DNA from: a virus
Lineage: Duplodnaviria > Heunggongvirae > Uroviricota > Caudoviricetes
Length of the DNA stretch: 64,000 nt
Strand: one strand, 5' to 3'
IMG/VR virus record: IMGVR_UViG_3300028895_001083
Shown here piece by piece: positions 5,945 to 46,145 of the stretch. A program made the position numbers and the translations under genes. The notes below the pieces were generated by a model that was not told where the DNA came from, did no database searches, and saw nothing but the letters and a program-made list of their open reading frames with translations. Positions within the stretch are counted from its first letter, which is position 1, and each line of letters opens with the position of its first letter.

Positions 5945-6454
5945 ATGAACAGACGAGACATGCTGAAGACATCGGCCGCTGCCGTTGCGGCCACCGGGAT
6001 GCTCCCGCGCGCGGAAGCCAAACCCACACCGACGGGCGACAAACAGATCATCGAACATTACGCCGCGACGATCTATGCGATCCCAGTCGTGGCCGCCCGG
6101 CGTGTTCTGGGCCTCTACCGCGGTGACTACAGCCTGTCCGTGTTGAAGGACGGCCAGCTGCTCGGCAATGCCAGGATAGTCGTTGCAACCGAAGAGGACA
6201 TCGACCGGTTCTTCAAGCCCGTGGCCGTCGGAGACGGTTTTACTCCGCGGATGGTAGCGAAGATACCGTCGGTGCGCTTCGGTGACGATCTCACTCTTAG
6301 AGACTTCTGGGTCTATACCGATCCGCCGGAGCCGGCCGACGGCTTCGTGAACCGTGAGGGTGCTGGCAAACTGATCGGCCTGCCGTACGCAACCTACGGC
6401 GGACGCCTCTGGAGAATGAAAGGACGTAAGCTCTATGAAATTCGGGACTCTTAG
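5945..6454 (+). CDS. Tat-signal secreted protein
   Basis: N-terminus MNRRDMLKTSAAAVAATGMLPRAEA is a twin-arginine signal peptide with an AxA cleavage site. GGGAGGG SD. Confidence 0.65.
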   Translation: MNRRDMLKTSAAAVAATGMLPRAEAKPTPTGDKQIIEHYAATIYAIPVVAARRVLGLYRGDYSLSVLKDGQLLGNARIVVATEEDIDRFFKPVAVGDGFTPRMVAKIPSVRFGDDLTLRDFWVYTDPPEPADGFVNREGAGKLIGLPYATYGGRLWRMKGRKLYEIRDS

Positions 6455-7325
6455 CGTCGTTTGCGGCACGTCCGCATGCAACGCCGGCTGCCCGTTCTGC
6501 GTGAGCAAGATGACCACGCAGGCAGAAACCGTAAAGAGGCCAAACTGGAGGCGATGTGAGGTCGCCTGCGAATTGGCAAAGCGCAGCGGCGTGACCACTG
6601 CGCTGATTACCGGTAAAGGCGAGCCCACACTCGTCCCCAAAGAGATTTCCGCCTACGTCCGCCGCCTCGCCGTGCACTTCCCGTTGATCGAACTGCAGAC
6701 CAACGGGATTATGCTGGCACACGAGAAGGACGACAGATGGATAAACGAGTGGGCGTGCTCCGGCATGACGCTCATCTGTGTCTCGGTGGTACATCACGAG
6801 AAACTGATCAACAGCGACATGATGGGCTACAAAGGCAAGGAGTTCGAGCTGTCGACGCTGATCGAGCGCATCCACAAAGCCGGTATGTCCGTGCGGATCA
6901 ACTGCACGGCCATGAAAGGCGGCGTTGAGACGTCCGACCACATCCACGACATGATCGACTTCTGCGCCTGCTTCGATGTCGAGCAGTTCACTATCCGCGA
7001 GGTCACTGCGCCGGACGCTGACGAACGCGTCGCACATCCCGGCGTCGCCAAATGGGTCCACGAGCATCAGCTCAACCAAAAGGACAGTGACGGCGCTAAG
7101 ATCGCCGGCGATCTGGCCATCCAGCGCGCAGTCGAGGAGCTGGGTGGGCAGAAACTGCTGGCACTTCCACATGGCGCAATGGTCTACGATGTCGGAGGCC
7201 AGAACGTCTGCACGAACAATTGCTTGACGGATACGCTCAATCCAGAAGAGATCCGCCAGCTCATTTACTTCCGGGACGGCCATTTGAGGTACGACTGGAA
7301 GTATCCCGGTGCTATCATCATCTAG
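6435..7325 (+). CDS. Radical SAM enzyme (family not resolved; QueE-like or activase-like)
   Basis: CNAGCPFC is a CX3CX2C 4Fe-4S/SAM motif at the N-terminus. A glycine-rich ITGKGEPTL SAM-binding motif follows. Confidence 0.8.
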   Translation: MKFGTLSVVCGTSACNAGCPFCVSKMTTQAETVKRPNWRRCEVACELAKRSGVTTALITGKGEPTLVPKEISAYVRRLAVHFPLIELQTNGIMLAHEKDDRWINEWACSGMTLICVSVVHHEKLINSDMMGYKGKEFELSTLIERIHKAGMSVRINCTAMKGGVETSDHIHDMIDFCACFDVEQFTIREVTAPDADERVAHPGVAKWVHEHQLNQKDSDGAKIAGDLAIQRAVEELGGQKLLALPHGAMVYDVGGQNVCTNNCLTDTLNPEEIRQLIYFRDGHLRYDWKYPGAIII

Positions 7326-10681: not shown

Positions 10682-12565
10682 TTACTCGAGCAGCTCGTCA
10701 TCCCACTCACCATCCGTAAGCGGCACCGATGCCCGCAGTTGTTCGTCGGTGATCGCGTAGGAGGCGAGCTCGTCGAGTCGTGGCCACCGCTTGGTGCGGT
10801 ACCACACCGCCACGCAGCCCAAATTGACAGCCTGGGCGAAGTCGTCAGTGAATCCTTCCTGCCGGGTGATCCGGTAGATCTCACCGGCGGCCATCGTGGT
10901 GATTTTGTCTTCGGTCAAGGCCAGAAAGTCCCGGATCAGGCCCGGATCCTCTTGGGAGTTGTAGTCCTTGTCGAAGAAACGGAGCTTCTGGCACTTGATC
11001 ATCGCACACGTCAGCAAGAGCGTTCGGCTCTTGTCGACACGGTAGTGGCTACGCGGATGCTGCATCGTAGGAGCAACGTGGTAGCAGGGCTGCTGGTTAG
11101 CGGAGCGGACGTACTGACAGGGCATCACTTTGCGAGTCGGAATGCCCGCTTGAATCAGGAACGTCTCCCGCAGAGAGCCGGCACCAGTGTAGTCGTGTGC
11201 GAGAATCTCGGGCTTGAAGATATCCCAGTAGTGTTTGACCTCTTTGGCTTCGCGCAGGTGGTCGTGGGGTGTAAGGAGCCGCTTGCCCCACAGTACGTCG
11301 ATCGAGCCATCGTGCTTCACACCAAGGAGAGCGATCGTCGTAAAGCTGATCTTCTTTTCACCGCCCCCTCCCCAGTCAACGCCCAGCACGCGAAATTTGT
11401 ATTGCCCGCAGCGACCACGGGCACGTGCAACTGTGTTGGGCCCGAGGTCAGACACCCGGTCAATTTCAGTCAGCGTAACGAGTTTGGCGGCCGTGTCGTA
11501 AGACTCGCCGAGAACCTCGTTCCAAAACACGTTCGCAGGCGTGTTGCCTTTGCCCGCCATCTTGGCGAGGAGTTCAGCCCACTTGTCAGGCTTGGCATAG
11601 TGCAAAGGCATGATCACCTGTGGAACATGGTATCCCGCCTGTAGCCATACCCGGTCGGGATGCCGGTGTACCCAGCGCCCCAGTCGGGGACTAATCGGCT
11701 TGCCGCAATGATAACAAATCGTCGCCGGGCACTTCTCGCTGATGTCGGTGTGATACTCGCCGATCATCTTCTCGAGATGGAACTCCATGGACGGTATGTT
11801 CCAGCGCGGCTTGCCGTTCTGGGTACAATGAAAACAGGGAATAAACCACTCGGCCTGGCTGGACTCGGTCCACAGGGCCTCTAGAGTGTTGTCCAACGTC
11901 TTCGGCGTGCCGGTGAACTGCCGGATCGCCCAGTCGGATGCCGACATCGTTTCGCGGATGATCGGGATATGTTCATGGTTCATATCCTGGACCTCGTCGA
12001 TGGCCACTTTGTCCGCGGAAATACCCCGGACACGGTCAGCGTTGAGGAATGCGAACGAAAAGAGCATTTTGGAGTCGTTACGGAAGGAGCGGTGCAGCAC
12101 GCTGTTCACGGTGGTCGTGTCCGACCACAAGAACTTCACCGGACTTTGGTCGATGAAGGGCTGGACGAACATCGTGCTGAAGCGCCGAACCTGCTCGAAC
12201 AGCGGCATCACGTAGAGTGTGCTGAAGTTCGGGATGGAGGTGGATGTGATTACCCCGTGGGCAGCGAGCGATGTGCTCTTGCTCACCTGCCGCCCCGTCT
12301 TGTAGACTATGGCGGACGGCATACGGAATCTGAAGATCTCTTCAAAGGGGAAGTGGTTCGCCAAGGTGTACGGCTTACCCTTGAGATTGAGGAGCAGCAT
12401 GAGCCCGTTGGCAAGTGAGTCCAACCGGCCCGACTGCAACAGCTGCGTGAAGAGCCTGACTCTTTCGTTAGCTGACAACTCCTCGATATTCTGGGGACTG
12501 AATGCGGCCCTCATCCGCATCTGCAGTCGTGCCAGTGCTTCAGGTTCTTGAAAGGGTACATCCAT
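10682..12565 (-). CDS. Terminase large subunit (GpA-like)
   Basis: 627 aa. Walker B-like AIDEVQD. Central CFHC...CYHCGKP zinc-finger pair and a C-terminal nuclease-sized domain match the lambda gpA-type terminase architecture. Confidence 0.8.
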   Translation of the reverse strand: MDVPFQEPEALARLQMRMRAAFSPQNIEELSANERVRLFTQLLQSGRLDSLANGLMLLLNLKGKPYTLANHFPFEEIFRFRMPSAIVYKTGRQVSKSTSLAAHGVITSTSIPNFSTLYVMPLFEQVRRFSTMFVQPFIDQSPVKFLWSDTTTVNSVLHRSFRNDSKMLFSFAFLNADRVRGISADKVAIDEVQDMNHEHIPIIRETMSASDWAIRQFTGTPKTLDNTLEALWTESSQAEWFIPCFHCTQNGKPRWNIPSMEFHLEKMIGEYHTDISEKCPATICYHCGKPISPRLGRWVHRHPDRVWLQAGYHVPQVIMPLHYAKPDKWAELLAKMAGKGNTPANVFWNEVLGESYDTAAKLVTLTEIDRVSDLGPNTVARARGRCGQYKFRVLGVDWGGGGEKKISFTTIALLGVKHDGSIDVLWGKRLLTPHDHLREAKEVKHYWDIFKPEILAHDYTGAGSLRETFLIQAGIPTRKVMPCQYVRSANQQPCYHVAPTMQHPRSHYRVDKSRTLLLTCAMIKCQKLRFFDKDYNSQEDPGLIRDFLALTEDKITTMAAGEIYRITRQEGFTDDFAQAVNLGCVAVWYRTKRWPRLDELASYAITDEQLRASVPLTDGEWDDELLE

Positions 12566-13585: not shown

Positions 13586-14008
13586 ATGTCCGAACGCAAA
13601 GTACCGTTCAATGAGCAGCTTCAGGCTGCTGTTGACGCATGCGAGGAGACTCTAAGGGACATTCCGGAGGTCGAAGGCGTGGCATTCACGTTTATCTACG
13701 CCGACGGCCTTACGGAGTCCGAGCCCTCGAACGTGCTTATCGGGCCTGACGACCCGATCTTTCTCGCTAAGGCTGGTAAGCAACTCACAAAGCTCCAGCG
13801 CACTGTGACCGCAGCGTTGCAGGAAAAGTTCACCGTGGCCGAGACCGTTCTATCGAACCTCAAGGCGCAAATTGACGAACACATCGCAAAAGCCAAAGAC
13901 CAGGAAGGGAACCAAGCGGAAGAAACCCCAGATCAAGGGGATAGCGACGCTGGACGACCTCCTGAAACACCTGCACATCCAGACGTGGGACACCCTGATA
14001 GTGGGTGA
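13586..14008 (+). CDS. Hypothetical protein
   Basis: ATG 1 nt after palindrome site 2, with no SD. GC3 is high until about 13880, then drops where the RNase H frame takes over. Confidence 0.5.
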   Translation: MSERKVPFNEQLQAAVDACEETLRDIPEVEGVAFTFIYADGLTESEPSNVLIGPDDPIFLAKAGKQLTKLQRTVTAALQEKFTVAETVLSNLKAQIDEHIAKAKDQEGNQAEETPDQGDSDAGRPPETPAHPDVGHPDSG

Positions 14009-14516
14009 CGGGTCTGGGACCGGGTGGAAACAAGGGGCCGGCTGGGCCTCCGTACTCATCGACCAGTCCTCAGGCGCCCGCAAACTCTTCTATGGCGCCA
14101 TGAACACTGGGACCGTCACTCTTGGCGAGATGTTCCCGTATCTGCATGCCCTATCGTGGTACGCCGGCCGAGACGGGCCAGGGCGTAACCGCCGACAAGA
14201 GGTCCAGCAACTGGGCCGTGACATGCAGGTGCACATCGTTACCGATTCCCAAACCGTCGCAACGTGCGGAAACAACCCCGCATCCCGGCGCTCGCATCGC
14301 GAGCTCTGGAAAGCGTTCGACGAGTACCGCAGCAACGGCTTTGCCTTGCAGTTCCACTTCGTTGCCCGGGACGTGATCAACTTGAACGTCCTGGTCGACG
14401 AGATTTCGCGTCAAGCACGCAAAGACATGGAGGAGACATACAGTACCGCCATGGAAACGCTGTGCAAACGATACCCAGGCCTCCCGGAGGATGCCACCAT
14501 CTATGACTTCAACTGA
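13872..14516 (+). CDS. RNase H-like ribonuclease with basic N-terminal extension
   Basis: LIVGDGSG, TDSQ and D..N..DLW-type spacing match the RNase HI fold. N-terminal tail KPKTRKGTKRKKPQIKG. Only a TTG is available as start. Confidence 0.7.
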   Translation: MTNTSQKPKTRKGTKRKKPQIKGIATLDDLLKHLHIQTWDTLIVGDGSGTGWKQGAGWASVLIDQSSGARKLFYGAMNTGTVTLGEMFPYLHALSWYAGRDGPGRNRRQEVQQLGRDMQVHIVTDSQTVATCGNNPASRRSHRELWKAFDEYRSNGFALQFHFVARDVINLNVLVDEISRQARKDMEETYSTAMETLCKRYPGLPEDATIYDFN

Positions 14517-14958
14517 TCCCACGCTGGCGACGTATCACAAAGACCTCTACGAGGACGATACGCCGCTTGCCATCATCAAGTTCTTCGAAGCCCAGCTCAA
14601 CCGGACGCCCGACAGCGACCGCGACTGGCACGAGAACGTCCGCTACCGTGTCCATTACGGTAACACCATCACAGGGCGTTGCTGGGGCGAGTACGACGAA
14701 GGCACTGTGGCACTCAACAACGAGGAGCCACAGGGCCTGATGATGCTCGCGACGCCGTCTACGAAGGAGGGGCCGCTGGTCCTGACTGGGTCGATCGTAC
14801 GGATCGATAAGCTTGCTGGCCGCTCGGTCGAGCAGGTGTACAGACATCCCACATATCACACCCACGAGGAGGAAGCGCGCGTTGCAAAAGCGGAAGTGCA
14901 GCCTGAACGGCGGCCGCGACGCATCGTGCTCAGAGGAAATGCCGACGGAGACACGTAG
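14503..14958 (+). CDS. Hypothetical protein
   Basis: ATG overlaps the RNase H 3' end by 14 nt. Confidence 0.5.
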   Translation: MTSTDPTLATYHKDLYEDDTPLAIIKFFEAQLNRTPDSDRDWHENVRYRVHYGNTITGRCWGEYDEGTVALNNEEPQGLMMLATPSTKEGPLVLTGSIVRIDKLAGRSVEQVYRHPTYHTHEEEARVAKAEVQPERRPRRIVLRGNADGDT

Positions 14959-16759
14959 TTTCAAGATGGACCAGAGTTTGCTGGTCAGCGTGATCAAGAA
15001 GCAGGCAGGCAGCCTGTGGAAAGCCGTTGTGGAAGGCGGGCAGAACGTCATCGACGCTGCCGCCCGCAAGTGCGAGATCGATTGCACGCCACAGATGGTG
15101 CAGATTCGCGATAACGGAAAGGGGTTCCGGTCCAAGGCGGACATTGAGAACTTCTTCGAAGTCTTCGGCAAACCGCACGAAGAAAGAGAGCAGAAAGTCT
15201 TTGGACAGTACCGCATGGGCCGCGGCCAGCTGTTCGCCTTCGGGCGTAACGTCTGGCGGTCCGGCGAGTTCGAGATGATCGTCGATATTGAGGAGAACGG
15301 CCTGGATTATGAGCTACGATCTGGCCTCGAGTATCACAACGGCTGCATCGTGACAGTGGAGCTTTATCGGCCGCTGTCGCATGTCCAGCACAACGAGATC
15401 CTCGACGAGATCAAGAAGAACATCAAGTTCGTCCAGATCCCGTTCCATCTGAATGGCGACGAGAAGCAGTTCAACAAGAAGCCCGACAAGATCGCCTGGG
15501 ACCTCTCGACGGCCGAGGCGGACTTCAAGTGGCGTGACAACGGGAACCTGGAGCTGTTCAACCAGGGCATCCGTGTCTGCTCTTACCCGCGCTACCGGTA
15601 CGGCACCGGCGGCGACATCGTGTCCAAAAAGCAGCTGGACGTGAACTTCGCCCGAAACGACGTCATGGACAGCTGTGAGACGTGGCAGGCGATCAGAAAG
15701 ACCGTGCGCGACCACGTCAACGCACGGACGTTGGCCCAGCAAGAAACGGCCGGCCGGCAACGGAATACCCCGACGCGCACACGTGCCCGGGCAACCAATC
15801 GGCGGCGTCCGACGCTGACCGAGCAGGACCGCTGCCGCGTCGTGCGCGAGATGAAAGACGGGTCGTTGAACAAGCGCCAGATGAAGGCCGCCAAGGTCTT
15901 CACGATGTGGCGTAAGGAAACGCACTCGACGATCTCCGCCGTATACAAGATCGCCAAGGGGAACGTCACGTTCCTCCCAGACGAGACACCGGCGTACTCG
16001 AGCCTACCCAAATCGCTGGCGGATCACCGCCTGGCGGTCGTGCTCGATCCCGTCATGTTCAACCGCTGGGGATGGAAACCGGAGTTCCCGGAAAAGCTAG
16101 TCGAGAACATCAACGCCACGTTCGACGAGCAGTTCGGCAAGTACGCAAACGACGTCCGGCTGAAGTACGTCGATGCGGACAAGATCGTGAAGACGATGCA
16201 AGGATCGAACACGGTCATCGACGCGAACAAGATGACACGCCTCGAACGCATCGCCACGGCGACTATGAGCGCCAATATCAGCAACATCCACTGGGCAGCC
16301 TGCCGTGTCAATGTCCAGCAGAACCGCAACGCGCAGCGGCGCATTGTGGTCGGCATCGGTCCGTTCGATTCGTGGACCGACGGCCGTACGTTCATTGCGA
16401 TCAACCGCCGGGTGATTGCTGCTGTCAAGGTCGGGCCTTCCAGCTGGTGGCGCTACGCTACGCTGCTCCTGCACGAGTATCTGCACACAGATGCGACGCA
16501 GGACGCGCATATGCACAAGAAGGACTTCTACGAGGCGTACCACAATCTCGTGCAACAGCACTTCATGGGCGTCTTCTGCTGGAACTGCATGATGCGGCTG
16601 CCCGCCAATGCGCGCAGCGTGCGTCGTCGCCTGACCAGCAAGGAGTTGGCGACTGTCGATGCGGCCGAAGAGCAGCAAATCTACGCACAGAACTGGGACG
16701 ACCTGGGTGTCATGTCACACCCGGATTTGGCGCCCACTTCGCGAGAGGCAGAGGAATGA
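14939..16759 (+). CDS. GHKL-family ATPase (MutL/MORC-like Bergerat fold) with C-terminal HExxH-containing domain
   Basis: N-box EGGQNVIDAA, G1-box IRDNGKGF and G2-box FGQYRMGRGQLFAFG. A basic linker is followed by a HEYLH motif in the C-terminal third. Confidence 0.7.
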   Translation: MPTETRSFKMDQSLLVSVIKKQAGSLWKAVVEGGQNVIDAAARKCEIDCTPQMVQIRDNGKGFRSKADIENFFEVFGKPHEEREQKVFGQYRMGRGQLFAFGRNVWRSGEFEMIVDIEENGLDYELRSGLEYHNGCIVTVELYRPLSHVQHNEILDEIKKNIKFVQIPFHLNGDEKQFNKKPDKIAWDLSTAEADFKWRDNGNLELFNQGIRVCSYPRYRYGTGGDIVSKKQLDVNFARNDVMDSCETWQAIRKTVRDHVNARTLAQQETAGRQRNTPTRTRARATNRRRPTLTEQDRCRVVREMKDGSLNKRQMKAAKVFTMWRKETHSTISAVYKIAKGNVTFLPDETPAYSSLPKSLADHRLAVVLDPVMFNRWGWKPEFPEKLVENINATFDEQFGKYANDVRLKYVDADKIVKTMQGSNTVIDANKMTRLERIATATMSANISNIHWAACRVNVQQNRNAQRRIVVGIGPFDSWTDGRTFIAINRRVIAAVKVGPSSWWRYATLLLHEYLHTDATQDAHMHKKDFYEAYHNLVQQHFMGVFCWNCMMRLPANARSVRRRLTSKELATVDAAEEQQIYAQNWDDLGVMSHPDLAPTSREAEE

Positions 16760-17004
16760 ACGGGCTACCTTGGGACATCCAGGTAGCCCTTGACCTCCGC
16801 ATCTCACACGGGGCCGAGAAGGTGGAGGAGTACTGGGACACGAACATGCACGCCAAGAAGCGGACAGCCGCTATCCGGTGGATCATGTTCAACCGCCCGG
16901 ATCTCCTCAACTTCTCCGGCGCCCCTGTTAAACGGTTCATGGCGCTGATCGAGGCGCTTTTCGAAGAATATAAGGAGGAGCGTCATGTCAAAGAAGGAGC
17001 TTAG
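16756..17004 (+). CDS. Hypothetical protein
   Basis: ATGA overlap with the GHKL gene stop; 82 aa. Confidence 0.5.
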   Translation: MNGLPWDIQVALDLRISHGAEKVEEYWDTNMHAKKRTAAIRWIMFNRPDLLNFSGAPVKRFMALIEALFEEYKEERHVKEGA

Positions 17005-17263: not shown

Positions 17264-17540
17264 ACTCGAGGTCCCCGACCAGTTCCAACTGGTTGCTGGG
17301 CACTACATATATCACAAGGTGACCAGCGGGCTGATGCCCATCGGCACCGTGATCTACGACGGAAAGCGTGACGTCCTGGTAGCGTGCCTGGACGGAGCGG
17401 CTTATGACAAGACCGTTACTATCGACGAATGGCTGGTGGAGCGTCCGCACTGGGTCGAAGCGACCGGCGAGGACGACGCACCGACGCCGTTCCTCGAGAT
17501 GCAACGGATCAAACTCGCGCCGCCGGATGACGGCGACTAA
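17217..17540 (+). CDS. Hypothetical protein
   Basis: ATG at 17217; an alternative GTG at 17250 has an AGGAG SD. Confidence 0.45.
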   Translation: MPVLVHQEKIHVVETELEVPDQFQLVAGHYIYHKVTSGLMPIGTVIYDGKRDVLVACLDGAAYDKTVTIDEWLVERPHWVEATGEDDAPTPFLEMQRIKLAPPDDGD

Positions 17541-17559
17541 CCCCTTCAGGAGGATGTAC

Positions 17560-19683
17560 ATGAACAAGAAAGCGGCTGCCGCCAGAATCGCTGAACTGTC
17601 AGCGGACGTGGATCGGCACAACATGTTGTACTATTGCTATGGTGAACCAGCGATCCCGGATAGGGTGTTCGACGAGCTCCTCAAGGAACTGGTTGCACTA
17701 GAGCAGGAATTCCCGGATCTGGCGCTGCCAGATAGCCCGACCCAACGTGTGGGCGGCGCTCCTGTTGAGGGCCTCGAGTCCATGGAGCACCCGTCGCTCA
17801 TGTTTTCTATCGACAACTGCTTCGACCTCGATGAGGTCAAGAAGTTTCATCAGCGTGTGGTGAAGAAGCTCGGCCACGAGCCGCTCTGGACGCCCGAATG
17901 GAAGATTGACGGTTGCGCTGTCAATCTGATCTATGAGGACGGCGTACTCACCCATGCCATAACCCGCGGCGACGGTGCAGTCGGCGACGACATCACGCAC
18001 GCTGCCAAGGCAATGCGCGGCGTCCCTCTCAAGCTGGACCGTCTCTACGACGAGGAAGGCAATGTGATGGGGAATCCCAAGCCGTTGCCGAAGCTCTTGG
18101 AGATCCGTGGCGAAGCGTTCATCACGCACGATGACTTCACGCAGGTCAACTGTGCGCGCAACAACGCTGGTGAGGAGACGTTCGCCAACTCCCGCAACGC
18201 CACGTCCGGCGCTATCCGTAGCGTCGATCCGGCCGACTGTCACGAGCGGCGTGTACGTTTTATGGCGCACGGCATCGGCAAGTGTGAGTACGAAGGCGAC
18301 GTCGATATCGAGTCGTACTTCGAGACGCTGTTTGCCTTTCATCTTTGCGGGATGCCGATCACAGATCACTATGGCCTGCCCGCCCCGATGGATAAGGCGC
18401 TGAAGACCGTCGCAGAGATGGTTGCCATGCTGCCAGAACTGAGCATTCCGGTCGACGGGATCGTCCTGAAGCTGGACAAGTTCAGCGATCGTGAAGCCAT
18501 GGGCCAAGAGTCCAAGAAGCACGTGAGCTGGGCGCTGGCCTACAAGTGGGAGAAGTACGAGGCCGTAACCGAGGTCGAGCGCTTCGACGTACAGGTAGGC
18601 AAGCAGGGCACGCTGACGCCGGTGGTTTACTGCAAACCGGTGGAGATCGCTGAGACGATGGTCGGCAAGGCGTCGCTGCACAACTGGCACGAAGTCTTGC
18701 GCCTGGGCATCGCCCACGGTGACTCGATCGTCATGGAAAAGGCCGGCAAGATCATTCCGCACGTCGTACGTGTGGTCAAGGAGAAGCGCACCGGACCGGT
18801 CGCGCCGTTCCTGCCGCCCGCTACCTGCCCGTCCTGCGGCAGCGACGCCATCGAGGATGGTCCGTTCCTGCGCTGCTCAGGTGATTCGTGCCCCGCACAG
18901 ATCGCCGCCCTGCTCCGATCGGCCGCTGACCGGTCCCGCCTAGATATAGATGGTTTGGGGGAGACCCTAGCCACCCAATTGGCGGAGGCAGAGCTGGTTG
19001 AGGACCTCTCGGACCTCTTCACGCTTGAGCATCGCAGAGACAGCGTTCTGAGGCTTGCACGCATGGGCGAGAAGAAAGCCGACAAGCTCTTCGAAGCCCT
19101 CGCAACGGCGCGTGAGCGGCCTTCCTGGCGATTATTGGCGTCTTTGAACATCAAGCACGTCGGAAGGACCATGTCGGAGGCCATCTGCAAGGCTGCTAGC
19201 GCTGCTGGCGCCGAGCTGAAGGAACCCGCCGACCCCTTCCAAGTGATGGTGTCCTTGTGGTCGATCGACGACTATACCCAGATTGAGGGGGTTGGCGAAG
19301 CCGCCGCTCGATCGATCTGGACGTGGATGCACAGCGAGAAAAACCTGAAGCTGCTGAAGCGCCTCCGGGACTACGGCGTCAACATGGGCGTCAACGACCC
19401 GGTGCCCGAAGTAGACGACGGATCTCCGAAGCCGCTCGCCGGTATGAAGATCTGTGCGACCGGGAAACTGGTCGGGTACTCTCGCGAAAGCATCAAGGAG
19501 ACGATCGTGCAACACGGCGGTACAGTCGCCAGCGCGGTCTCGGCGAAGACCGACATGCTCGTCGCCGGCGAAAAAGCCGGCAGCAAACTGAAGAAGGCCC
19601 AGGACCTGGGCGTTCGTGTCGTCAACGAAGCGGAGTTCAATGACCTCATATCGGTCGAGCAGCAAGAATCCGCCAGTAAGTAA
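17560..19683 (+). CDS. ligA: NAD-dependent DNA ligase
   Basis: AGGAGG SD. KIDG adenylation lysine motif (EWKIDGCAV), Zn finger CPSCGS...C..C, HhH region and a C-terminal BRCT-like domain. The N-terminus aligns with the LigA Ia domain (YYxxxxPxIxDxEYD). Confidence 0.9.
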   Translation: MNKKAAAARIAELSADVDRHNMLYYCYGEPAIPDRVFDELLKELVALEQEFPDLALPDSPTQRVGGAPVEGLESMEHPSLMFSIDNCFDLDEVKKFHQRVVKKLGHEPLWTPEWKIDGCAVNLIYEDGVLTHAITRGDGAVGDDITHAAKAMRGVPLKLDRLYDEEGNVMGNPKPLPKLLEIRGEAFITHDDFTQVNCARNNAGEETFANSRNATSGAIRSVDPADCHERRVRFMAHGIGKCEYEGDVDIESYFETLFAFHLCGMPITDHYGLPAPMDKALKTVAEMVAMLPELSIPVDGIVLKLDKFSDREAMGQESKKHVSWALAYKWEKYEAVTEVERFDVQVGKQGTLTPVVYCKPVEIAETMVGKASLHNWHEVLRLGIAHGDSIVMEKAGKIIPHVVRVVKEKRTGPVAPFLPPATCPSCGSDAIEDGPFLRCSGDSCPAQIAALLRSAADRSRLDIDGLGETLATQLAEAELVEDLSDLFTLEHRRDSVLRLARMGEKKADKLFEALATARERPSWRLLASLNIKHVGRTMSEAICKAASAAGAELKEPADPFQVMVSLWSIDDYTQIEGVGEAAARSIWTWMHSEKNLKLLKRLRDYGVNMGVNDPVPEVDDGSPKPLAGMKICATGKLVGYSRESIKETIVQHGGTVASAVSAKTDMLVAGEKAGSKLKKAQDLGVRVVNEAEFNDLISVEQQESASK

Positions 19684-35164: not shown

Positions 35165-36676
35165 ATGACAAATTCGACGGAAGAGCTGGCCTCTGACGAT
35201 TACGTCGTCGTCATTGGTCCCGTCATTGTCGATCGCTACTTCGTGGGCAAACCCAGACGACTTGACCGTACGGCGCCGGTGCCTCTAATCGGCGTCACGG
35301 GACAGTTCTGGGCGCCCGGTGGCGGCGGCAATGCCGCAAACTGCTTGGCCCATCTGGCCCTCCCAACGACGTTCGTCGGCATGGTCGGAGACGACGACGC
35401 CGGCGAAGAGTATCTCAAGGCACCGATGCCTCCCAACCTGCAGCTGAAGGTTGGCAAATACGCTAACTACAGCACCCCCGTAAAAACCCGCGTCTATGCC
35501 AACAATCGCCTTGTAGCACGGTTTGACGCGGACGATCCTTACACAGGGTCGTTCGAGTCTACGACTGCGTCCTTATTTTTTAGCGCTGTGGCAGAGAAGC
35601 CGCCTTTGGCGATACTTATCAGCGACTACAACAAGGGGGTGTGCACGCCCGACATCATCGGGTCCGTGCTGCTCTACGGCGAGGATCACAACGTCCCCGT
35701 GATCGTGGACCCTGATCCGGCGCACACAGAGAGCTATCAGGGCGCTACGCTACTCACGCCGAACGCCGACGAGGCAATGCGGATGGCAGCGGCCTGCGGG
35801 TATGCAGATCGCGCAACCGATCCGGTCGAAGCAGCTGACTTCCTGGCCAACAAGTTCGATTGTGACGTCCTCGTCACGCTCGGCAGCCACGGAATGGTGC
35901 TGGTTCCGCCCCACGGGCAGGAACGGTTCCCGCTGCAAGCGCTGCCCGCCGCTGCGATCGATACGTGCGGTTGCGGAGATGCTGTGGCGTCGGCGATGAC
36001 CTACGGGATTGCCACCGGAATGAACGCACGCACGGCTACGCGCTTTGCAAACGTGTCCGGTTCGCTATGCTGCGAGATCATTGGTGCTATGCCCATCCCG
36101 CTGCACCGCCTCAACCAACGCGTGACGCTGTCGCTCGGGCTCGATCGAAAGGTCGTGACCCTCGACGAGCTGCGTCTCCTGCGGCAATCCGTCGCCGTCG
36201 CCGGCGAAATCTTCGGGGTTGCCAACGGCGTGTTCGACGGCGTCCACGACGGGCACACCTCGCTGCTACGGCAGGCCAGGGAGCATTGTGACTTCCTGGC
36301 GGTGCTCGTGAACACTGACGAATCGGCGGAGCGCATCAAGCGCCGACCGCAACACAGTCAGATAGCCCGTTCGCTCAGCCTGGCGGCGCATCCGTTGGTG
36401 GATGCGGTGCTGCTGTTCGACGGCGATAACGCAGTACCAGAGTATCAGGCGTTGCAGCCCGATATCATGGTAAAAGGGCCGGACTACAAGGATAGGGAAG
36501 ACCTGCTACCGGAAGCTGCGGTGCTGCCTGAATGGGGCGGCGAGCTGCGGTTGGCCGAGCTAGAGGTCGACGTCAGTAGTACCCAACTGCGGGAAGAAGA
36601 TGAGGCCCTCAAAGAGAGCACTGCGCCAGGAGAGACTGAAGACAGCGCTGGAGGAGCTGGAGACGCTGCGGACTGA
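35165..36676 (+). CDS. Bifunctional sugar kinase / nucleotidyltransferase (HldE/RfaE-like)
   Basis: N-terminal ribokinase/pfkB motifs GGGGNAANCLAHLA and DTCGCGDAVASA. C-terminal cytidylyl/adenylyl-transferase motif GVFDGVHDGH (the (H/T)xGH family). Confidence 0.7.
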   Translation: MTNSTEELASDDYVVVIGPVIVDRYFVGKPRRLDRTAPVPLIGVTGQFWAPGGGGNAANCLAHLALPTTFVGMVGDDDAGEEYLKAPMPPNLQLKVGKYANYSTPVKTRVYANNRLVARFDADDPYTGSFESTTASLFFSAVAEKPPLAILISDYNKGVCTPDIIGSVLLYGEDHNVPVIVDPDPAHTESYQGATLLTPNADEAMRMAAACGYADRATDPVEAADFLANKFDCDVLVTLGSHGMVLVPPHGQERFPLQALPAAAIDTCGCGDAVASAMTYGIATGMNARTATRFANVSGSLCCEIIGAMPIPLHRLNQRVTLSLGLDRKVVTLDELRLLRQSVAVAGEIFGVANGVFDGVHDGHTSLLRQAREHCDFLAVLVNTDESAERIKRRPQHSQIARSLSLAAHPLVDAVLLFDGDNAVPEYQALQPDIMVKGPDYKDREDLLPEAAVLPEWGGELRLAELEVDVSSTQLREEDEALKESTAPGETEDSAGGAGDAAD

Positions 36677-37508: not shown

Positions 37509-38726
37509 ATGGCAGCGAGACCGCTAGCACTGGTATCGGCTGACTGGCATCTTCGTAAGTACGACCGCGTGTGGTACCGACGTGACACGCTGCGCGGCGA
37601 CGCCGCGTGGGGCGTCCGACAGGTATGCGACATTGCGGCCGAGCAAATGCCTGATTGTCTGATCCTGCTGGGCGACCTGTTCGACCAGCGGCTGCAGCAG
37701 TCAGATTCTCTGATGCTCATGCGACGAGCTATGGCTGATTTCCAGGAGAACAATATCCAAGTGCAGTTCATTCAAGGACAGCACGAGCGGTCTTCACCGA
37801 CGCTGATGAAGTCGATCCACAGCTGGTCACAGCATATCGACGAGCGGATGGTGGAGTTGGACAACGGCAACCTGCTCATGTACGGCCTGGATTATCGCAA
37901 TCCGGTCGAGGTTGAGGAGGCGCTGCGTGCCGTGCCTACAAACGCTGACATTTTGGCGACTCATCAGGTTTGGAAGGATTACCTTGGCGAGGAGCGCGGC
38001 GATGCCTGGTTCCACTGGGCGCCGACGCAGTTCATTGCCACGGGAGATTTCCACAAAGCGAAATTCGAGACGCGTGGGACGCAGAAGATCCTGTCACCGG
38101 GACCGCTCTGCATGCAGAACATCGGCGAGGATCACGAGAAGTTCGTGTTCATGCTGAACTCTGATCTCACCGTCACGCCATACAAATTGCGATCGCGCGG
38201 CTACTATGAGGCACGCCTGTACGAGGAAGCGCAACTCGAGCAATTCCTCGACGAGTGGGACGCCTCCCCGGCGAAGATCCCGCAGGTTGGCGTGCCGCCC
38301 GCCGTCGCAACAAACATCATCCGCGTTTGGTACCGTTCGGATATTCCCGACGCCAAGCCGCGGTTGGAAGGTAGGATCGGCTCATCGGCCCACCTATTTA
38401 CAACGATGATCCCTGTCGAAGACCAGGCACAGACGGTCGACGCCGAGCGGCGTGTCCAGGCTGTACTTGGTGCGGGCATGGTCGGATGCATCAACGAGTT
38501 TTACGGAGATGACCCTCGCGCATGCGCAGATGCCGTGCGGCTCTACCGTAGCAAAGACATCCAAACCGAGCTACTTTCAATCTTCAAGGAGCAAGTTAGT
38601 GTCCCTAACGGTCACCGAGAAGGAACATTTCAAGACGAGACTCCAGGAGATCCACGATCGAGCGACTGCACAACTGACGGCCGACGCGCCAGCGTGGGAG
38701 CCACGGCTCCGCAACAAGGCAGCTAA
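37509..38726 (+). CDS. sbcD: SbcD/Mre11-family nuclease
   Basis: Phosphoesterase motifs SADWH, LLGDLFD, GQHE and ATHQ. Paired with the downstream SbcC-like ATPase. Confidence 0.8.
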   Translation: MAARPLALVSADWHLRKYDRVWYRRDTLRGDAAWGVRQVCDIAAEQMPDCLILLGDLFDQRLQQSDSLMLMRRAMADFQENNIQVQFIQGQHERSSPTLMKSIHSWSQHIDERMVELDNGNLLMYGLDYRNPVEVEEALRAVPTNADILATHQVWKDYLGEERGDAWFHWAPTQFIATGDFHKAKFETRGTQKILSPGPLCMQNIGEDHEKFVFMLNSDLTVTPYKLRSRGYYEARLYEEAQLEQFLDEWDASPAKIPQVGVPPAVATNIIRVWYRSDIPDAKPRLEGRIGSSAHLFTTMIPVEDQAQTVDAERRVQAVLGAGMVGCINEFYGDDPRACADAVRLYRSKDIQTELLSIFKEQVSVPNGHREGTFQDETPGDPRSSDCTTDGRRASVGATAPQQGS

Positions 38727-39668: not shown

Positions 39669-40003
39669 GTGCGGACCTCACGTTGAAGTACGCAACCACT
39701 TTCACGAGTCTTGCTAACGCTATGCGACTTGTGAAGGCGTCGCTGCTGGCCCTCAAGGATGCCAGCGATAATCTCAACGACTGGTGGGACGACCAAGACC
39801 TCGAAGGTGTGGAGGACGAGGACGAGTTCCTCGCCAAGAAAGCCGCCGAGACTTTTGGCATCCCGGAGAGCTTCGCGCTCGCCCTTGTCGACTTTTCGTT
39901 GCTTCCAGAGATCAAAGGTATGAAGGCTGCGCCGCCTGACGCCATGACGCTCGCCGAAGCGCTATCACTACTGCACCCCCTAACAAGTGAGAGCTGGCCA
40001 TGA
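39665..40003 (+). CDS. Hypothetical acidic protein
   Basis: ATGA coupling on both sides. Confidence 0.55.
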   Translation: MSADLTLKYATTFTSLANAMRLVKASLLALKDASDNLNDWWDDQDLEGVEDEDEFLAKKAAETFGIPESFALALVDFSLLPEIKGMKAAPPDAMTLAEALSLLHPLTSESWP

Positions 40004-42144
40004 TAATCCAGAAGGTCAACCTTCGACATTTCTGCCAGCACATCCAGGAAGAATTCACGCTGTCGCCTGGGCTCAACATGATCGTTGGGCCCAACGGCAG
40101 CGGGAAGACCAACCTCCTGCGTGCTACGCAGTTTCTCGTCACGGGGGACTCGGGCGGCAATCGCCCCAAGGCGGACGACGTCTACCAAGGCGTGTTCGGC
40201 TCAAACGAGGAGTCCTTTGTGAGCGGCCAGCTGTTGCACGAGGGAACAGTCATTACCCTCAAGCGTGCGCTCCAGCCGGCGACAGCCAATCTCATGGAGA
40301 TCGGCGACGAGACCTGGACGTCTGTCAATGCCATCAACAGCGAGCTGTTCCGACGGCTGGGCACGACGAAGAAGCAGATCCACGACTACATCTTCGTCCG
40401 CCAACGCGGCATCGACGAGATGTTCGACCAAAAGCCCGCCGAGCGGGCCGCATCGCTGGCATCCCTCTTCGGCCTCGACAAGGCTGAGAAGATCTGGAAG
40501 CAGACCGGCGACTTCCTCAAAACGATCGAGGTGCCGACCACGACGTTGAGTCTGGATGAGCTGAACGCGCAGCACGCTGACATACAGGTGCAGATCACCG
40601 AGCTCAACAACCAGTTCGCGGCGCTCCATCTACCACTCGACGGCGACGCCAAGCTTGCGGAACATCAAACCGTGATCGACGGCTGTAAGCAGCGTGAGAT
40701 GCTGATGAACAAGCAGGCGGTCCTGGAGAAGACGCGTGAAGAGACGCTCGCTTCTGCCAAGGCTGCGATGTCGTACCGGCAACAGTTGCAGACAGAGGCT
40801 ACGCTGCTGGAGAACGCTATGGCCGCCGTCAGCGTCGAAGCCAATGACGCGCACGGCGAGCTGGCACGTTGGGACGCGTACGATAAGTCGCTGACAGCGC
40901 GCGAGCAGTTCGTCGCCGACGAGCTGGCTTTTCGTACCAAGTGGCCGAGTCATCCGAAGCAGCCGCGCGAGGTCGCACCGCTCGGTGAGGACCTTGTCGA
41001 GGCGTTGAAGGGCTATCGTGCAGTGCGTAACAGTCTCACCAACAGCATCAAAGGCCTGGAGGATGAGGACGACAACTGTCCGACGTGTGGCCAGCCACTG
41101 CCCGAGGCCGACCAGGCCACGGCACGCTTGCAGGAGCTGCACGATCAGCTGCGTGAGTGCGAGATGGAACGACAGCCGCTCGAGGAACAGCAACGTGCGT
41201 ACGATCAGTACTGCGCCGAGCTGTTACACTGGCAACGGCAGTGCGAGGAGATGGATAAAGAGCAGGAAGCCTTGGAGCAACGCAAAGAGGCCCTGCAGCT
41301 GGTTGAGCAACCACGCAGCGCGCGTGACGCTCTCCAGGCCGTCATCGACGAGCACACCGAGTTCTGTGCGGCGCATAAGGAGATCCAGGAGAAGCTTAAG
41401 GTGGCGCTTGCTACTGAGGCCAGCCTCGACGCGAAGCTGGACCAGCAAAACCAGACGCACTTTGAGCAGACCGCGGAGATCGACTCGCTGCATAAGTACA
41501 CGGCGGAGGCCGCTACCATTGCTCGCCAGGAGTTGCAGCAGCTGAAAGGCCGGCTGGCGCAGGCCACCGAGCTCGACAAGCAGATCGCTGTGCTGCGCGC
41601 CACGCTCGACGGCGTGGAGTCGAAGATCGACGACGTGCGGCGTGTGGAGCAAAAGAGCATCCGCACTCGGCAGGCTGTCGACCACCTGCAGCGTATCCGA
41701 GACATGTACCACCGCAACGAGGCCCCGCGCTTGGTGTCCTACACCTATATCGAGAACATGCTCGACGAGGTGAACCGAACACTGGAGCTATTCGAGGCGC
41801 CTTTCCGGGTGGAGATGGACGAGGATCTGGGCTTCATCTGCCGGTTTACCGATGGTATTCGGGTGCAGCCCGACAGTCGGCTCTCGGTCGGCGAGCGGAT
41901 CGTTCTTGCTATGGCGTTCCGCATTACAGTAAACTCTACGTTCGCAGGTCAGGTGGGTGTCCTCATTCTGGACGAGCCCACTGCCGGCCTTGACGAACAC
42001 AACCTCGGCTGTCTACCGCACGCCCTGGAACGTCTGCAGGTACTATCTGCAGAGCGTGGACTCCAGGTTTTGTTCGTCACGCACGAACCGCGGATTCAGC
42101 ACCTGTTTGACAACGTCATTACGTTACGAGCCCATGAAAACTGA
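40000..42144 (+). CDS. sbcC: SbcC/Rad50-family ATPase
   Basis: N-terminal Walker A GPNGSGKTN, long coiled coil with a central CPTCGQPL zinc hook, and a C-terminal signature/Walker B region (VLILDEPTAGLD). Confidence 0.85.
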   Translation: MIIQKVNLRHFCQHIQEEFTLSPGLNMIVGPNGSGKTNLLRATQFLVTGDSGGNRPKADDVYQGVFGSNEESFVSGQLLHEGTVITLKRALQPATANLMEIGDETWTSVNAINSELFRRLGTTKKQIHDYIFVRQRGIDEMFDQKPAERAASLASLFGLDKAEKIWKQTGDFLKTIEVPTTTLSLDELNAQHADIQVQITELNNQFAALHLPLDGDAKLAEHQTVIDGCKQREMLMNKQAVLEKTREETLASAKAAMSYRQQLQTEATLLENAMAAVSVEANDAHGELARWDAYDKSLTAREQFVADELAFRTKWPSHPKQPREVAPLGEDLVEALKGYRAVRNSLTNSIKGLEDEDDNCPTCGQPLPEADQATARLQELHDQLRECEMERQPLEEQQRAYDQYCAELLHWQRQCEEMDKEQEALEQRKEALQLVEQPRSARDALQAVIDEHTEFCAAHKEIQEKLKVALATEASLDAKLDQQNQTHFEQTAEIDSLHKYTAEAATIARQELQQLKGRLAQATELDKQIAVLRATLDGVESKIDDVRRVEQKSIRTRQAVDHLQRIRDMYHRNEAPRLVSYTYIENMLDEVNRTLELFEAPFRVEMDEDLGFICRFTDGIRVQPDSRLSVGERIVLAMAFRITVNSTFAGQVGVLILDEPTAGLDEHNLGCLPHALERLQVLSAERGLQVLFVTHEPRIQHLFDNVITLRAHEN

Positions 42145-43763: not shown

Positions 43764-43797
43764 GGCCCGCTGGTGGCACAGCGAGCCTTTTGTGTTT
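43764..43797 (+). terminator. Rho-independent terminator
   Basis: GGCCCGCTG-gtggca-CAGCGAGCC (9 bp, 1 mismatch) followed by TTTTGTGTTT. Confidence 0.6.
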
Positions 43798-43898
43798 CAC
43801 GACCTGCAGGGGCATGCGGTCATGGCGGTATGTTACTGCCAATGATAGCGGACCCTGCGCATGTGGTCAACCCCGTTGGGGGGACCAAAGGACGCAGA

Positions 43899-45440: not shown

Positions 45441-45450
45441 CTCGTTGCGT

Positions 45451-46134: not shown

Positions 46135-46145
46135 AAAGGGGCATC

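Follow-up and report, generated by a model that had tools for sequence, protein, structure and literature searches.

The window, that is, the whole 64,000-nucleotide stretch of viral DNA analyzed, carries on its plus strand a complete gene for a protein in which a GHKL-transducer ATPase, a conserved middle domain, and a zincin-like metallopeptidase domain are joined in a single polypeptide (Table 1). The fusion of a GHKL ATPase with an HExxH-containing domain, as claimed in the original prediction, was confirmed, and extends to three modules over 606 residues. The identification of the gene as a single-gene, three-module enzyme of mobile genetic elements is well supported, as are the identities of the domains, whereas the function proposed for the protein is tentative. 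No specific family for the fusion protein was found in Pfam, NCBIfam, PADLOC, or PHROGs, in line with the original prediction, which could not assign the fusion to a described family, and no description of a GHKL ATPase-zincin fusion was found in the literature.

Two candidate start codons were considered, namely ATG at position 14939, yielding 606 residues, and ATG at position 14966, yielding the 597 residues of the public gene call (P0001). The former is favored because the first residues encoded from it, MPTETRSFKM, match the N-termini of homologues in the alignment, and because F8 is conserved in at least 90% of the sequences of a 40-sequence alignment (A1). A total of 277 homologues of the 606-residue protein were found, with the best 120 of the 277 being mostly full length and 29–45% identical. 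The plus-strand frame has more than 1,000 homologues, while a search for homology found none in support of the long antisense open reading frames of this 58–60% GC region. Promoter, terminator, and Rfam scans of the interval from 12.0 to 21.0 kb yielded nothing informative.

Table 1. Features of the ATPase-zincin gene, with positions in the window, strand, and basis of assignment
Feature	Positions	Strand	Basis
Complete gene, 606 aa: GHKL-transducer ATPase, middle domain, and zincin domain	14939..16759	+	ORF list, homologues, AlphaFold2
GHKL (Bergerat) ATPase domain and second (transducer) domain, residues 1-270	14939..15748	+	
N box E32-G-G-Q-N36-V-I-D39, Mg/ATP-binding motif I (ExxxNxxD)	15032..15055	+	Invariant residues in A1
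G1 box D58-N-G-K-G62 (DxGxG, motif II)	15110..15124	+	D58, G60, and G62 invariant in A1
G2-like box G89-Q-Y-R92-M-G-R-G-Q97	15203..15229	+	G89 and R92-Q97 invariant in A1
N236-F-A-R239-N240, transducer-domain loop	15644..15658	+	Invariant columns in A1
Disordered Arg/Thr-rich linker, residues 271-294, AGRQRNTPTRTRARATNRRRPTLT, pI 12	15749..15820	+	AlphaFold2, A1, composition
Conserved middle domain, residues 295-460: small alpha/beta unit, then helices	15821..16318	+	
Minimal zincin-like metallopeptidase domain, residues 461-560: three strands, active-site helix, further helices	16319..16618	+	
W479-T-D-G482, conserved strand just N-terminal to active-site helix	16373..16384	+	
H512-E-Y-L-H516 (HExxH), predicted: two zinc ligands and catalytic glutamate	16472..16486	+	Alignments
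H524-M-H526, candidate third zinc ligand	16508..16516	+	Alignments
Long C-terminal helix and acidic disordered tail, residues 561-606	16619..16759	+	AlphaFold2

The ATPase module and the regions around it

The N, G1, and G2 boxes named in the original prediction are all present in the N-terminal module and are invariant or nearly so in A1, with E32, N36, and D39 of the N box invariant, and all three motifs were matched by regular expressions in 107 of the 120 homologues examined (the best 120 of 277). Membership in the GHKL superfamily is further supported by the Bergerat fold and by an above-threshold match to Pfam HATPase_c_3 (27.7 bits, compared with a cut-off of 25), and the second (transducer) domain directly following the GHKL domain is a trait of the GHKL-S5 group. 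Apart from the ATPase match, no TOPRIM, MutL_C, or other Pfam domain was found, in agreement with the absence of TOPRIM reported earlier. At the sequence level, the N box stretch finds its best match in the N box of MutL, PMS2, and Mlh1. In structure, the ATPase modules of MutL, MORC, and topoisomerase II are among the closest to the N-terminal module, and those of Hsp90, MORC, topoisomerase II, and MutL are approximately equally close; thus, assignment to the MutL/MORC/Hsp90 class of ATPases holds, whereas the label "MORC-like" is too specific. The GHKL and transducer modules of MutL, MORC, Hsp90, and type II topoisomerases undergo dimeric clamp closure on ATP binding, and those of MutL, MORC, and topoisomerase II act on DNA.

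Residues 3–7 form an N-terminal strand that, together with the conserved F8, might act as a dimerization strap. GHKL-S5 ATPases have a conserved basic residue that reaches the gamma-phosphate from the second domain, and R239 of the transducer domain is a candidate for this sensor role. Equating the NFARN loop, which contains R239, with the NLSRE catalytic loop of Hsp90 was considered and abandoned, as a phmmer search with the transducer/NFARN region retrieved no Hsp90 chain and no MutL chain.

The linker following the ATPase module has pLDDT values below 50 at residues 272–290 in the AlphaFold2 model. In A1, it is an insertion confined to the close phage clade of the window, with the modules of most family members being joined directly. 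No recognizable relative of the middle domain was found, and its fold is not assignable. The C-terminal region was modeled as a helix (residues 567–588) followed by residues with pLDDT values below 50, has a pI of 4.6, and may, speculatively, serve as a dimerization or partner-binding element.

The zincin-like domain and its family

That the C-terminal module is a minimal Wss1/SprT/minigluzincin-type zinc metalloprotease is well supported. The structure model (AlphaFold2; mean pLDDT 86.9 and pTM 0.71 for the whole protein, pLDDT 88.3 for residues 291–606) displays the mixed sheet, active-site helix, and subsequent helix of a zincin fold, and the top structural matches of the domain are peptidases, namely selecase, jannalysin, and Wss1. 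HEYLH, the sole HExxH in the 606-residue protein, lies at the end of a helix (residues 500–514) in this model. On its own, an HExxH is weak evidence, since a single one arises by chance in 2.4% of shuffles of the 606-residue sequence; the motif is nevertheless judged to be more than a chance occurrence because 113 of the 119 relatives retain it and the domain around it is modeled with a zincin fold, both of which uphold the zinc hydrolase suggested earlier from HEYLH. HExxH is at least 90% conserved in A1 and invariant in alignments A3 and A4, and the extended pattern HExxH-x5-10-HxH-x3-[FYW] is found in 98 of the 113 relatives retaining the motif. Plasmid versions carry it as HEVAH, HEYAH, or HEYLH. 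The six relatives that have lost HExxH nonetheless persist.

Two histidines follow H516 at a distance of 8–10 residues, the invariant H526 and H524, which is kept in at least 90% of sequences. In A4, H526 (H236 in fragment numbering) and F530 are invariant, with H526 better conserved than H524, and a plasmid homologue (...CGHDEAFY) retains only the second His. Just ahead of the active-site helix, A1 has two invariant positions, W479 and T480, followed by two with at least 90% conservation, D481 and G482, and this stretch is likely to be the substrate-binding edge strand.

With a profile of the middle and zincin domains, 1,233 clusters (50% identity) were matched, including 694 with E ≤ 1e-30. 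The matches lie almost always behind the same ATPase, at residues ~270–560 of proteins of ~560–600 residues, and the architecture of the family is fixed and short. A search for this architecture elsewhere had been proposed with the original prediction, and it does recur on phages, plasmids, and genomic islands, although the proteins are annotated everywhere merely as "ATP-binding protein." Large uncultured phages and genomic islands carry the family, as do 203 sequenced plasmids, of which 91 are typed as conjugative; the plasmids include Pseudomonas syringae pPT23A-type, Acinetobacter (A. baumannii), and Xanthomonas plasmids. Overall, the family is sporadic and laterally mobile across many bacterial phyla and DPANN archaea. 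Variant C-termini were suggested by several plasmid and genome hits whose BLAST alignments covered no more than the first ~260 residues, but domain HMMs showed most of these proteins still to have the middle and zincin domains, with the zincin domain truly absent in only a few (L036/L059, L038-40, and L069). Pseudomonas plasmid versions have an additional C-terminal extension of ~230 residues. An M48 peptidase gene adjoining the Acinetobacter homologue was considered as one half of a split fusion, but the Acinetobacter protein itself includes a zincin domain, and this reading was rejected.

Relation to known systems and genomic neighborhood

HMM comparison rules out MutL, a topoisomerase subunit, rIIA, and ArdC as the identity of the window protein. 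A MutL paralogue was rejected on the basis of the TIGR00585 equivalog score (11.9 bits, compared with a cut-off of 180) and the absence of MutL_C in Pfam, and a type II topoisomerase subunit (GyrB, ParE, or phage gp39) on the absence of TOPRIM and DNA_gyraseB hits in Pfam. A known MutL or topoisomerase, the identity that would have told against the original prediction, is thus excluded. No topoisomerase subunit was found among conserved neighbors at 59 de-duplicated loci. Unlike Hsp90/HtpG, the protein has no Hsp90 domains detectable by HMM. Members of the T4 rIIA family are its closest viral structures in BFVD (E 1.8e-13), with the match limited to the N-terminal part and having a TM-score of 0.34 normalized to the query; membership in this family was rejected (hhalign against T4 rIIA, probability 0.3%, E 0.21), no rIIA PHROG hit was obtained, and no rIIB-like neighbor was noticed. 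In the T4 rIIA family, a GHKL N-terminus is followed by a variable C-terminus; its members are, like the window protein, phage-encoded GHKL proteins whose mechanism is unclear (PMC7824862).

ArdC, a protein that overcomes type I restriction and pairs single-stranded DNA binding with a Spartan-like metalloprotease (PMC7213743), resembles the window protein in its two-part organization, with a nucleic-acid-engaging module preceding a small Spartan-like HExxH protease, and in its occurrence on conjugative plasmids and mobile elements near SSB, topoisomerase, and transfer genes. In contrast, Pfam detects no ArdC-N domain in the window protein, which has an ATPase clamp instead, and the third metal ligand is Glu in ArdC (PMC7213743) but a predicted His here, as in Spartan/Wss1. 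The analogy is also imperfect because the protease glutamate of ArdC is dispensable for its anti-restriction phenotype (PMC7213743). With Wss1 and Spartan, DNA-dependent proteases that remove DNA-protein crosslinks, the protein shares a minimal Wss1/SprT-type zinc protease domain. Matches to the corresponding Pfam families were sub-threshold only, with a best E of 0.026 in 3 of 40 members for WLM (PF08325) and an E of 0.039 in 1 of 40 for SprT-like (PF10263), and with neither matching the window protein. The window protein differs from Wss1/Spartan in having no ubiquitin, SUMO, p97-binding, or zinc-binding subdomains, and in its fusion to a GHKL ATPase.

The locus in the window is a replication/repair region containing an exonuclease, Mre11/Rad50-like genes, helicases, and PolA, with a NAD-ligase gene 650 bp downstream of the ATPase-zincin gene. 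NAD-ligase is also located downstream throughout the close phage clade (L012 and L015–L019), directly abuts the homologue in one distant 634-kb contig (L011), and lies 3.5 kb upstream of it in Rhodovibrio. It was rejected as a family-wide partner, being absent from the other loci, which include most of the distant ones; the linkage mostly reflects gene order shared by a single phage clade and offers no more than a contextual hint. Comparison of the 59 de-duplicated loci revealed no family-wide conserved partner gene. The flanking genes at 14491–14958 (upstream) and 16756–17004 (downstream) were likewise rejected as partners, having no counterparts in distant loci and similarity, at 33–40% identity, only in one closely related phage (L004). 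A motif-based guess that the 214-residue open reading frame at 13872–14516 encodes an RNase H was not supported by Pfam, PHROGs, or a PDB sequence search.

Eleven distinct plasmid neighborhoods were inspected by eye and found to be heterogeneous. Topoisomerase III is located 10 bp upstream of the homologue in pBN4 and pEMT1; in p1448A-B, the homologue lies between virB11 and the coupling-protein gene, with Topo IA and SSB downstream; in pPp1290, it is adjoined by SSB and a C5-methyltransferase; and in a Methylobacter plasmid, relaxase and TraD genes are nearby. A ligase, topoisomerase III, SSB, or primase gene is the usual neighbor of family genes.

Proposed mechanism and competing readings

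We tentatively propose, giving it somewhat less than an even chance, that the protein is an ATP-gated clamp delivering a protease to DNA-bound proteins of the phage or plasmid. By binding and hydrolyzing ATP, the N-terminal module would gate engagement with DNA or a DNA-bound protein, and this engagement would position or activate the C-terminal protease. The protease would then cut proteins bound to the DNA of the element or covalently attached to it—possible substrates being host restriction or nucleoid proteins, trapped topoisomerases, and other DNA-protein adducts—and the cleared DNA could go on to replication, ligation, and establishment in the cell. Such a logic would parallel that of ArdC, with its DNA-binding domain and metalloprotease, and of Wss1/Spartan, the ATP-driven clamp taking the DNA-binding role. 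The invariant ATPase motifs, the confident model, the retained HExxH and downstream His, the fixed architecture, and the DNA-handling genes found nearby in the window and on plasmids all argue for a clamp-protease. Arguing against it, no recognizable DNA-binding domain was found by a Pfam search of 40 members or by structure comparison, the NAD-ligase linkage is mostly that of a single clade, the plasmid neighborhoods are heterogeneous, and 6 of 119 relatives are without HExxH.

A further step, which we regard as rather unlikely, would be to see in the family a new class of establishment or anti-defense factor, that is, an ATP-driven DNA clamp with its own Wss1/Spartan-type protease for stripping host proteins. 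Factors of this class would load on incoming or replicating DNA, with restriction complexes, nucleoid proteins, and trapped topoisomerases as targets. They would amount to a bacterial or archaeal version, in one polypeptide, of the proteolysis of DNA-protein crosslinks in eukaryotes, put to use in genetic conflict. An immunity or counter-defense role, the setting mentioned with the original prediction, would be conjectural; the data describe a lone mobile-element gene among replication, repair, and establishment genes.

It is unlikely that the protein is instead a paraMORC-like effector of defense or exclusion, in which the GHKL-transducer module acts as a sensor, for foreign DNA or a sign of infection, that switches the protease on, with an abortive-infection or anti-competitor output protecting the element that carries it against competing phages and plasmids. 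The pairing of a prokaryotic GHKL-S5 ATPase with a C-terminal effector is a known theme of restriction-type systems, with paraMORC1–5 having nuclease or TIR effectors and residing in restriction-type operons with helicases, nucleases, and methylases (Iyer, Abhiman and Aravind, 2008, PMC2292703). The sporadic, laterally mobile distribution of the present family would suit such a role, as would the defense-type genes beside some loci (a PLD-like nuclease and helicase; GmrSD and HNH; AbiJ and a restriction endonuclease). However, the effector here is a zincin domain, the window protein matched none of the families in PADLOC-DB at E values up to 1, and the family has no conserved partner of the nuclease, methylase, or helicase kind, unlike in typical MORC/paraMORC operons. 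Furthermore, in a large phage of lytic type the gene is part of the replication module, and on conjugative plasmids it lies in transfer/establishment regions; an offensive or housekeeping role fits these locations better than does defense.

Still more doubtful is an Hsp90-like chaperone-protease, whose ATPase would clamp protein clients for the zincin domain to trim or degrade in host takeover or protein maturation. Although virus-encoded Hsp90-family proteins were seen among the BFVD hits, none of the 40 members matched Pfam HSP90, the N box region is closest in sequence to the MutL group, the transducer region did not retrieve Hsp90 as described above, and the gene surroundings concern DNA metabolism rather than proteostasis.

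Autoprocessing is improbable. On this reading, cleavage by the zincin domain within the same chain, for instance in its basic disordered linker, would free the ATPase module or turn it on, which would in any case be compatible with cleavage of other proteins. Autoprocessing has been argued for many mobile-element metallopeptidase domains, including those of phage and plasmid polyvalent proteins (Iyer et al., PMC5512222), and both the linker between the ATPase and the remainder of the window protein and the C-terminal extension of the Pseudomonas plasmid versions, as a part that could be released or translocated, would be in keeping with it. However, the linker is limited to the clade of the window and missing from most members, and the family architecture is short and fixed, not polyvalent.

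Very improbable is a nuclease, with the zincin-like domain providing a YbeY-like metal site for cutting RNA or DNA in the manner of the ATPase-nucleases MutL or paraMORC3, since the YbeY site is HxxxHxxxxxH, without the glutamate of HExxH. Habitual as the pairing of GHKL-S5 ATPases with nucleases is (PMC2292703), a full peptidase signature, comprising HExxH with its glutamate, the downstream His, and the aromatic residue, is kept family-wide, and peptidases lead the structural matches.

If the ATPase does gate the protease on DNA-bound proteins, as in the ATP-gated clamp proposed here, this would constitute a new mechanism for the establishment of mobile DNA in cells, and proteolysis, rather than nicking, strand passage, or folding, would be a new output of the MutL/MORC/Hsp90 clamp. 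The family would then offer a tractable bacterial model of ATP-controlled removal of DNA-protein adducts.

Domain architecture of the GHKL-zincin protein

The plus-strand open reading frame, which stops at 16759, encodes 606 aa from the ATG at 14939. One public gene call (P0001, 597 aa) starts at the ATG at 14966; the upstream start is preferred because the first ten residues (MPTETRSFKM), including F8, conserved at ≥90% in the family alignment, match homologue N-termini. The N, G1, and G2 ATPase motifs named in the original prediction were all found—as E32-x3-N36-x2-D39, D58-x-G-x-G62, and a G2-like box, G89..R92-M-G-R-G-Q97—and are invariant in a 40-sequence alignment at 30–45% identity. Pfam HATPase_c_3 is matched at 27.7 bits, passing its gathering score of 25, and sequence-level alignment of the ATPase half is confined to the N box region, to MutL, PMS2, and Mlh1. 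In an AlphaFold2 model built from the family alignment (mean pLDDT 86.9, pTM 0.71), disorder is confined to the Arg/Thr-rich linker (residues 272–290) and the acidic C-terminal tail. Structure matches to residues ~1–270, aligned over 230–286 positions that take in the Bergerat fold as well as the next domain, were TRAP1 (18.7), GRP94 (16.5), MORC3 (16.1), phage T6 topo II ATPase (15.8), MORC2 (15.7), ParE (15.4), SMCHD1 (15.2), and MutL (15.1). As modelled, this half is of the GHKL-plus-transducer class, with no single member clearly favoured.

The linker (residues 271–294, AGRQRNTPTRTRARATNRRRPTLT), disordered and with a pI of 12, is limited to the window's phage clade; in most members the ATPase is joined directly to the middle domain. 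It may be a nucleic-acid contact or a cleavage site.

The HEYLH, whose context had been read as compatible with a zinc-dependent hydrolase, lies at residues 512–516. By itself an HExxH is weak evidence, since a lone one arises in 2.4% of shuffles of the protein, and it is considered real here because it is conserved: among the matches listed, 113 of 119 homologues keep it, 98 of these 113 within the extended motif HExxH-x5-10-HxH-x3-[FYW]. In the target, HExxH at a helix end is followed by a short loop, H524-x-H526, and F530, with H526 being the invariant His and the sole one retained in distant plasmid versions. The modelled C-terminal domain matches minimal zinc metallopeptidases, namely selecase (8.6), Wss1 (7.6 and 7.4), projannalysin (7.4), YbeY (7.1), Spartan (6.6), and M48/HtpX (about 6), and a second, independent model of residues 291–606 (pLDDT 88.3) recovered the same list (selecase 8.0; Wss1 6.9 and 6.6), in line with the hydrolase reading. 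Pfam WLM and SprT-like gave sub-threshold matches only, in few family members. HExxH is absent from six relatives among the matches listed (proteins P0021, P0026, P0039, P0048, P0080, and P0094), and the homologue loci L042 and L048 also belong to this minority; such members retain the zincin domain and, in those inspected, the ATPase motifs, which suggests from sequence that some copies function without proteolysis.

Family extent and carriage

A word-indexed protein search returned 277 proteins at E ≤ 0.001. The best 120 of these 277 are mostly full length, named "ATP-binding protein" at most, and 119 of the 120 contain all three modules by module-specific HMMs. A middle-plus-zincin profile scored against 1.84 billion cluster representatives matched 1,233 clusters at E ≤ 0.001 (694 at E ≤ 1e-30). 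Nearly all of the best 150 of the 1,233 match at ~270–560 of a ~560–600-aa protein; therefore, the module appears to occur essentially only behind this GHKL ATPase.

No curated family in PADLOC, PHROGs, NCBIfam, or Pfam covers the protein: PADLOC gave zero matches, PHROGs no more than two weakly matched families whose function is unknown, and NCBIfam only N-box matches to MutL, BbrUII, and sacsin, all far sub-threshold. T4 rIIA is the top structural neighbour among viral proteins; kinship was rejected, with profile comparison giving a probability of 0.3%. The modules are individually familiar, and, as originally suspected, no description of the GHKL + zincin combination was found in four HMM libraries or full-text literature searches.

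A search for the architecture elsewhere found it on phages, genomes, and plasmids. The window is part of a ~220-kb phage, an identical protein being encoded on a 220,266-bp contig. Cultured phages nearly lack the family (2 of 50,697 records). Genome matches come from a wide range of bacterial phyla and from DPANN archaea, a scatter typical of mobile genes. In PLSDB, 203 of 72,556 plasmids carry a homologue (Acinetobacter 89, Pseudomonas 50, Xanthomonas 22), 91 of the 203 being typed as conjugative, and the plasmid proteins retain the zincin domain and HExxH.

Gene neighbourhoods

The gene sits in a co-directional block, with the divergent large terminase gene on one side and, 650 bp downstream of the gene, an NAD-dependent ligase gene on the other; synteny with the ligase holds within the close phage clade. 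Outside that clade the ligase recurs independently only near the Rhodovibrio copy and in L011, a distant 634-kb contig where it overlaps the GHKL-zincin stop codon. In the window, farther along than the ligase, lie exonuclease, deoxyribonucleotidase, Mre11- and Rad50-like, helicase, and PolA-UDG fusion genes; the Mre11-/Rad50-like and helicase genes mark the window as a replication/recombination module. Clustering of every ORF at 59 de-duplicated loci, drawn from viral contigs, genomes, and metagenomes, revealed no neighbour conserved throughout the family; small flanking genes and the ligase are common to the close phage clade. The sole neighbour family reaching past that clade is the 214-aa ORF, present in 15 loci (including L025, L030, L032, L060, and L068); a motif-based guess of RNase H was unsupported by Pfam, PHROGs, or PDB sequence search. 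The PfkB-cytidylyltransferase fusion, found again near a homologue in an unrelated phage, could be tied to a pathway for sugar nucleotides or DNA modification.

Features of the window and of homologue-bearing loci
Feature	Location	Strand	Remarks
Radical SAM enzyme	6435-7325	+	Upstream of terminase; adjoined by DUF7873 protein in matching public contigs
Large terminase subunit	10682-12565	-	GpA-type ATPase; packaging gene beside early or replication-type genes
214-aa ORF	13872-14516	+	
GHKL-zincin gene	14939-16759	+	
Linker	15749-15820		Residues 271-294, Arg/Thr-rich
NAD-dependent DNA ligase	17404-19683		Probable start 17560; LigA type (OB, zinc-finger, HhH, BRCT)
PfkB-type sugar kinase/cytidylyltransferase-like fusion	35165-36676	+	HldE-like architecture
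Mre11-like phosphoesterase	37509-38726	+	Weak Metallophos_2 match
Rad50/SbcC-like SMC ATPase	40000-42144	+	
DnaB-like and SF2 helicases	43773-47801		
Uracil-DNA-glycosylase-superfamily/3'-5' exonuclease/family A DNA polymerase	48909-52094	+	1,061 aa
PfkB-cytidylyltransferase fusion	L006 15494-16969		~213-kb phage contig
Pseudomonas plasmid homologue	L072 8989-11379		~800 aa
Pseudomonas plasmid homologue	L073 8989-11427		~800 aa
M48-family metallopeptidase	L074 6099-6839		A. baumannii plasmids; directly upstream of homologue

In a descriptive survey of 11 distinct plasmid contexts, the gene frequently sits among genes for DNA processing or establishment: in pBN4 and pEMT1, topoisomerase III 10 bp upstream; virB11 and a coupling-protein gene on either side in p1448A-B, with topo IA and SSB downstream; SSB, a C5-methyltransferase, and ParAB in pPp1290; relaxase and TraD in a Methylobacter plasmid; and RecBD in a Photobacterium plasmid. 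From its position between virB11 and the coupling-protein gene, the p1448A-B version could possibly be transferred into recipient cells. Four unrelated plasmids (L075, L076, L077, and L079; Xanthomonas, Methylibium, Aeromonas, and P. aeruginosa) encode, within 5 kb of the homologue, a large "phosphoadenosine phosphosulfate reductase family" protein; DndB is nearby in the Aeromonas plasmid and a ParB-N-domain protein in that of Xanthomonas, and the grouping may mark a recurrent establishment or DNA-modification island. The two Pseudomonas versions add a ~230-residue C-terminal extension, acidic and Gln/Glu-rich, without a Pfam match. The M48 gene of the A. baumannii plasmids is not half of a split fusion, because the Acinetobacter homologue keeps its own zincin domain.

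Possible function

GHKL-transducer modules act as dimeric clamps that close on ATP, and DNA-associated proteins are the targets of proteases of the Wss1, Spartan, and ArdC types. The analysis shows the domain identities, the conserved motifs, a fixed fusion encoded by one gene, and its presence on mobile elements; from the background on these modules and the DNA-metabolism context, we tentatively propose that an ATP-gated clamp would deliver a zinc protease to proteins that are bound to the element's DNA or crosslinked to it, and that proteolysis there would help the element to replicate or become established. The protein has no recognisable DNA-binding domain, and the relatives without HExxH call for caution over proteolysis. 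In the plasmid anti-restriction protein ArdC, the protease glutamate is dispensable for the phenotype (PMC7213743).

The closest parallel in the literature is the radiation of prokaryotic MORC/paraMORC proteins, in which a GHKL-S5 module carries at its C-terminal side an effector that is usually a nuclease or TIR domain, in restriction-type operons (PMC2292703). paraMORC5, described there as having an unassigned C-terminal domain with an "HxH motif" (PMC2292703), might be the same family. Among the main rivals, a paraMORC-like role in defence or exclusion is unlikely. Autoprocessing, which is compatible with the other readings, is a long shot, and a YbeY-like nuclease is a still more improbable reading of the zincin fold. 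Overall, the ATPase-zincin family is large, occurs on plasmids of clinical and agricultural importance, and is directly testable.
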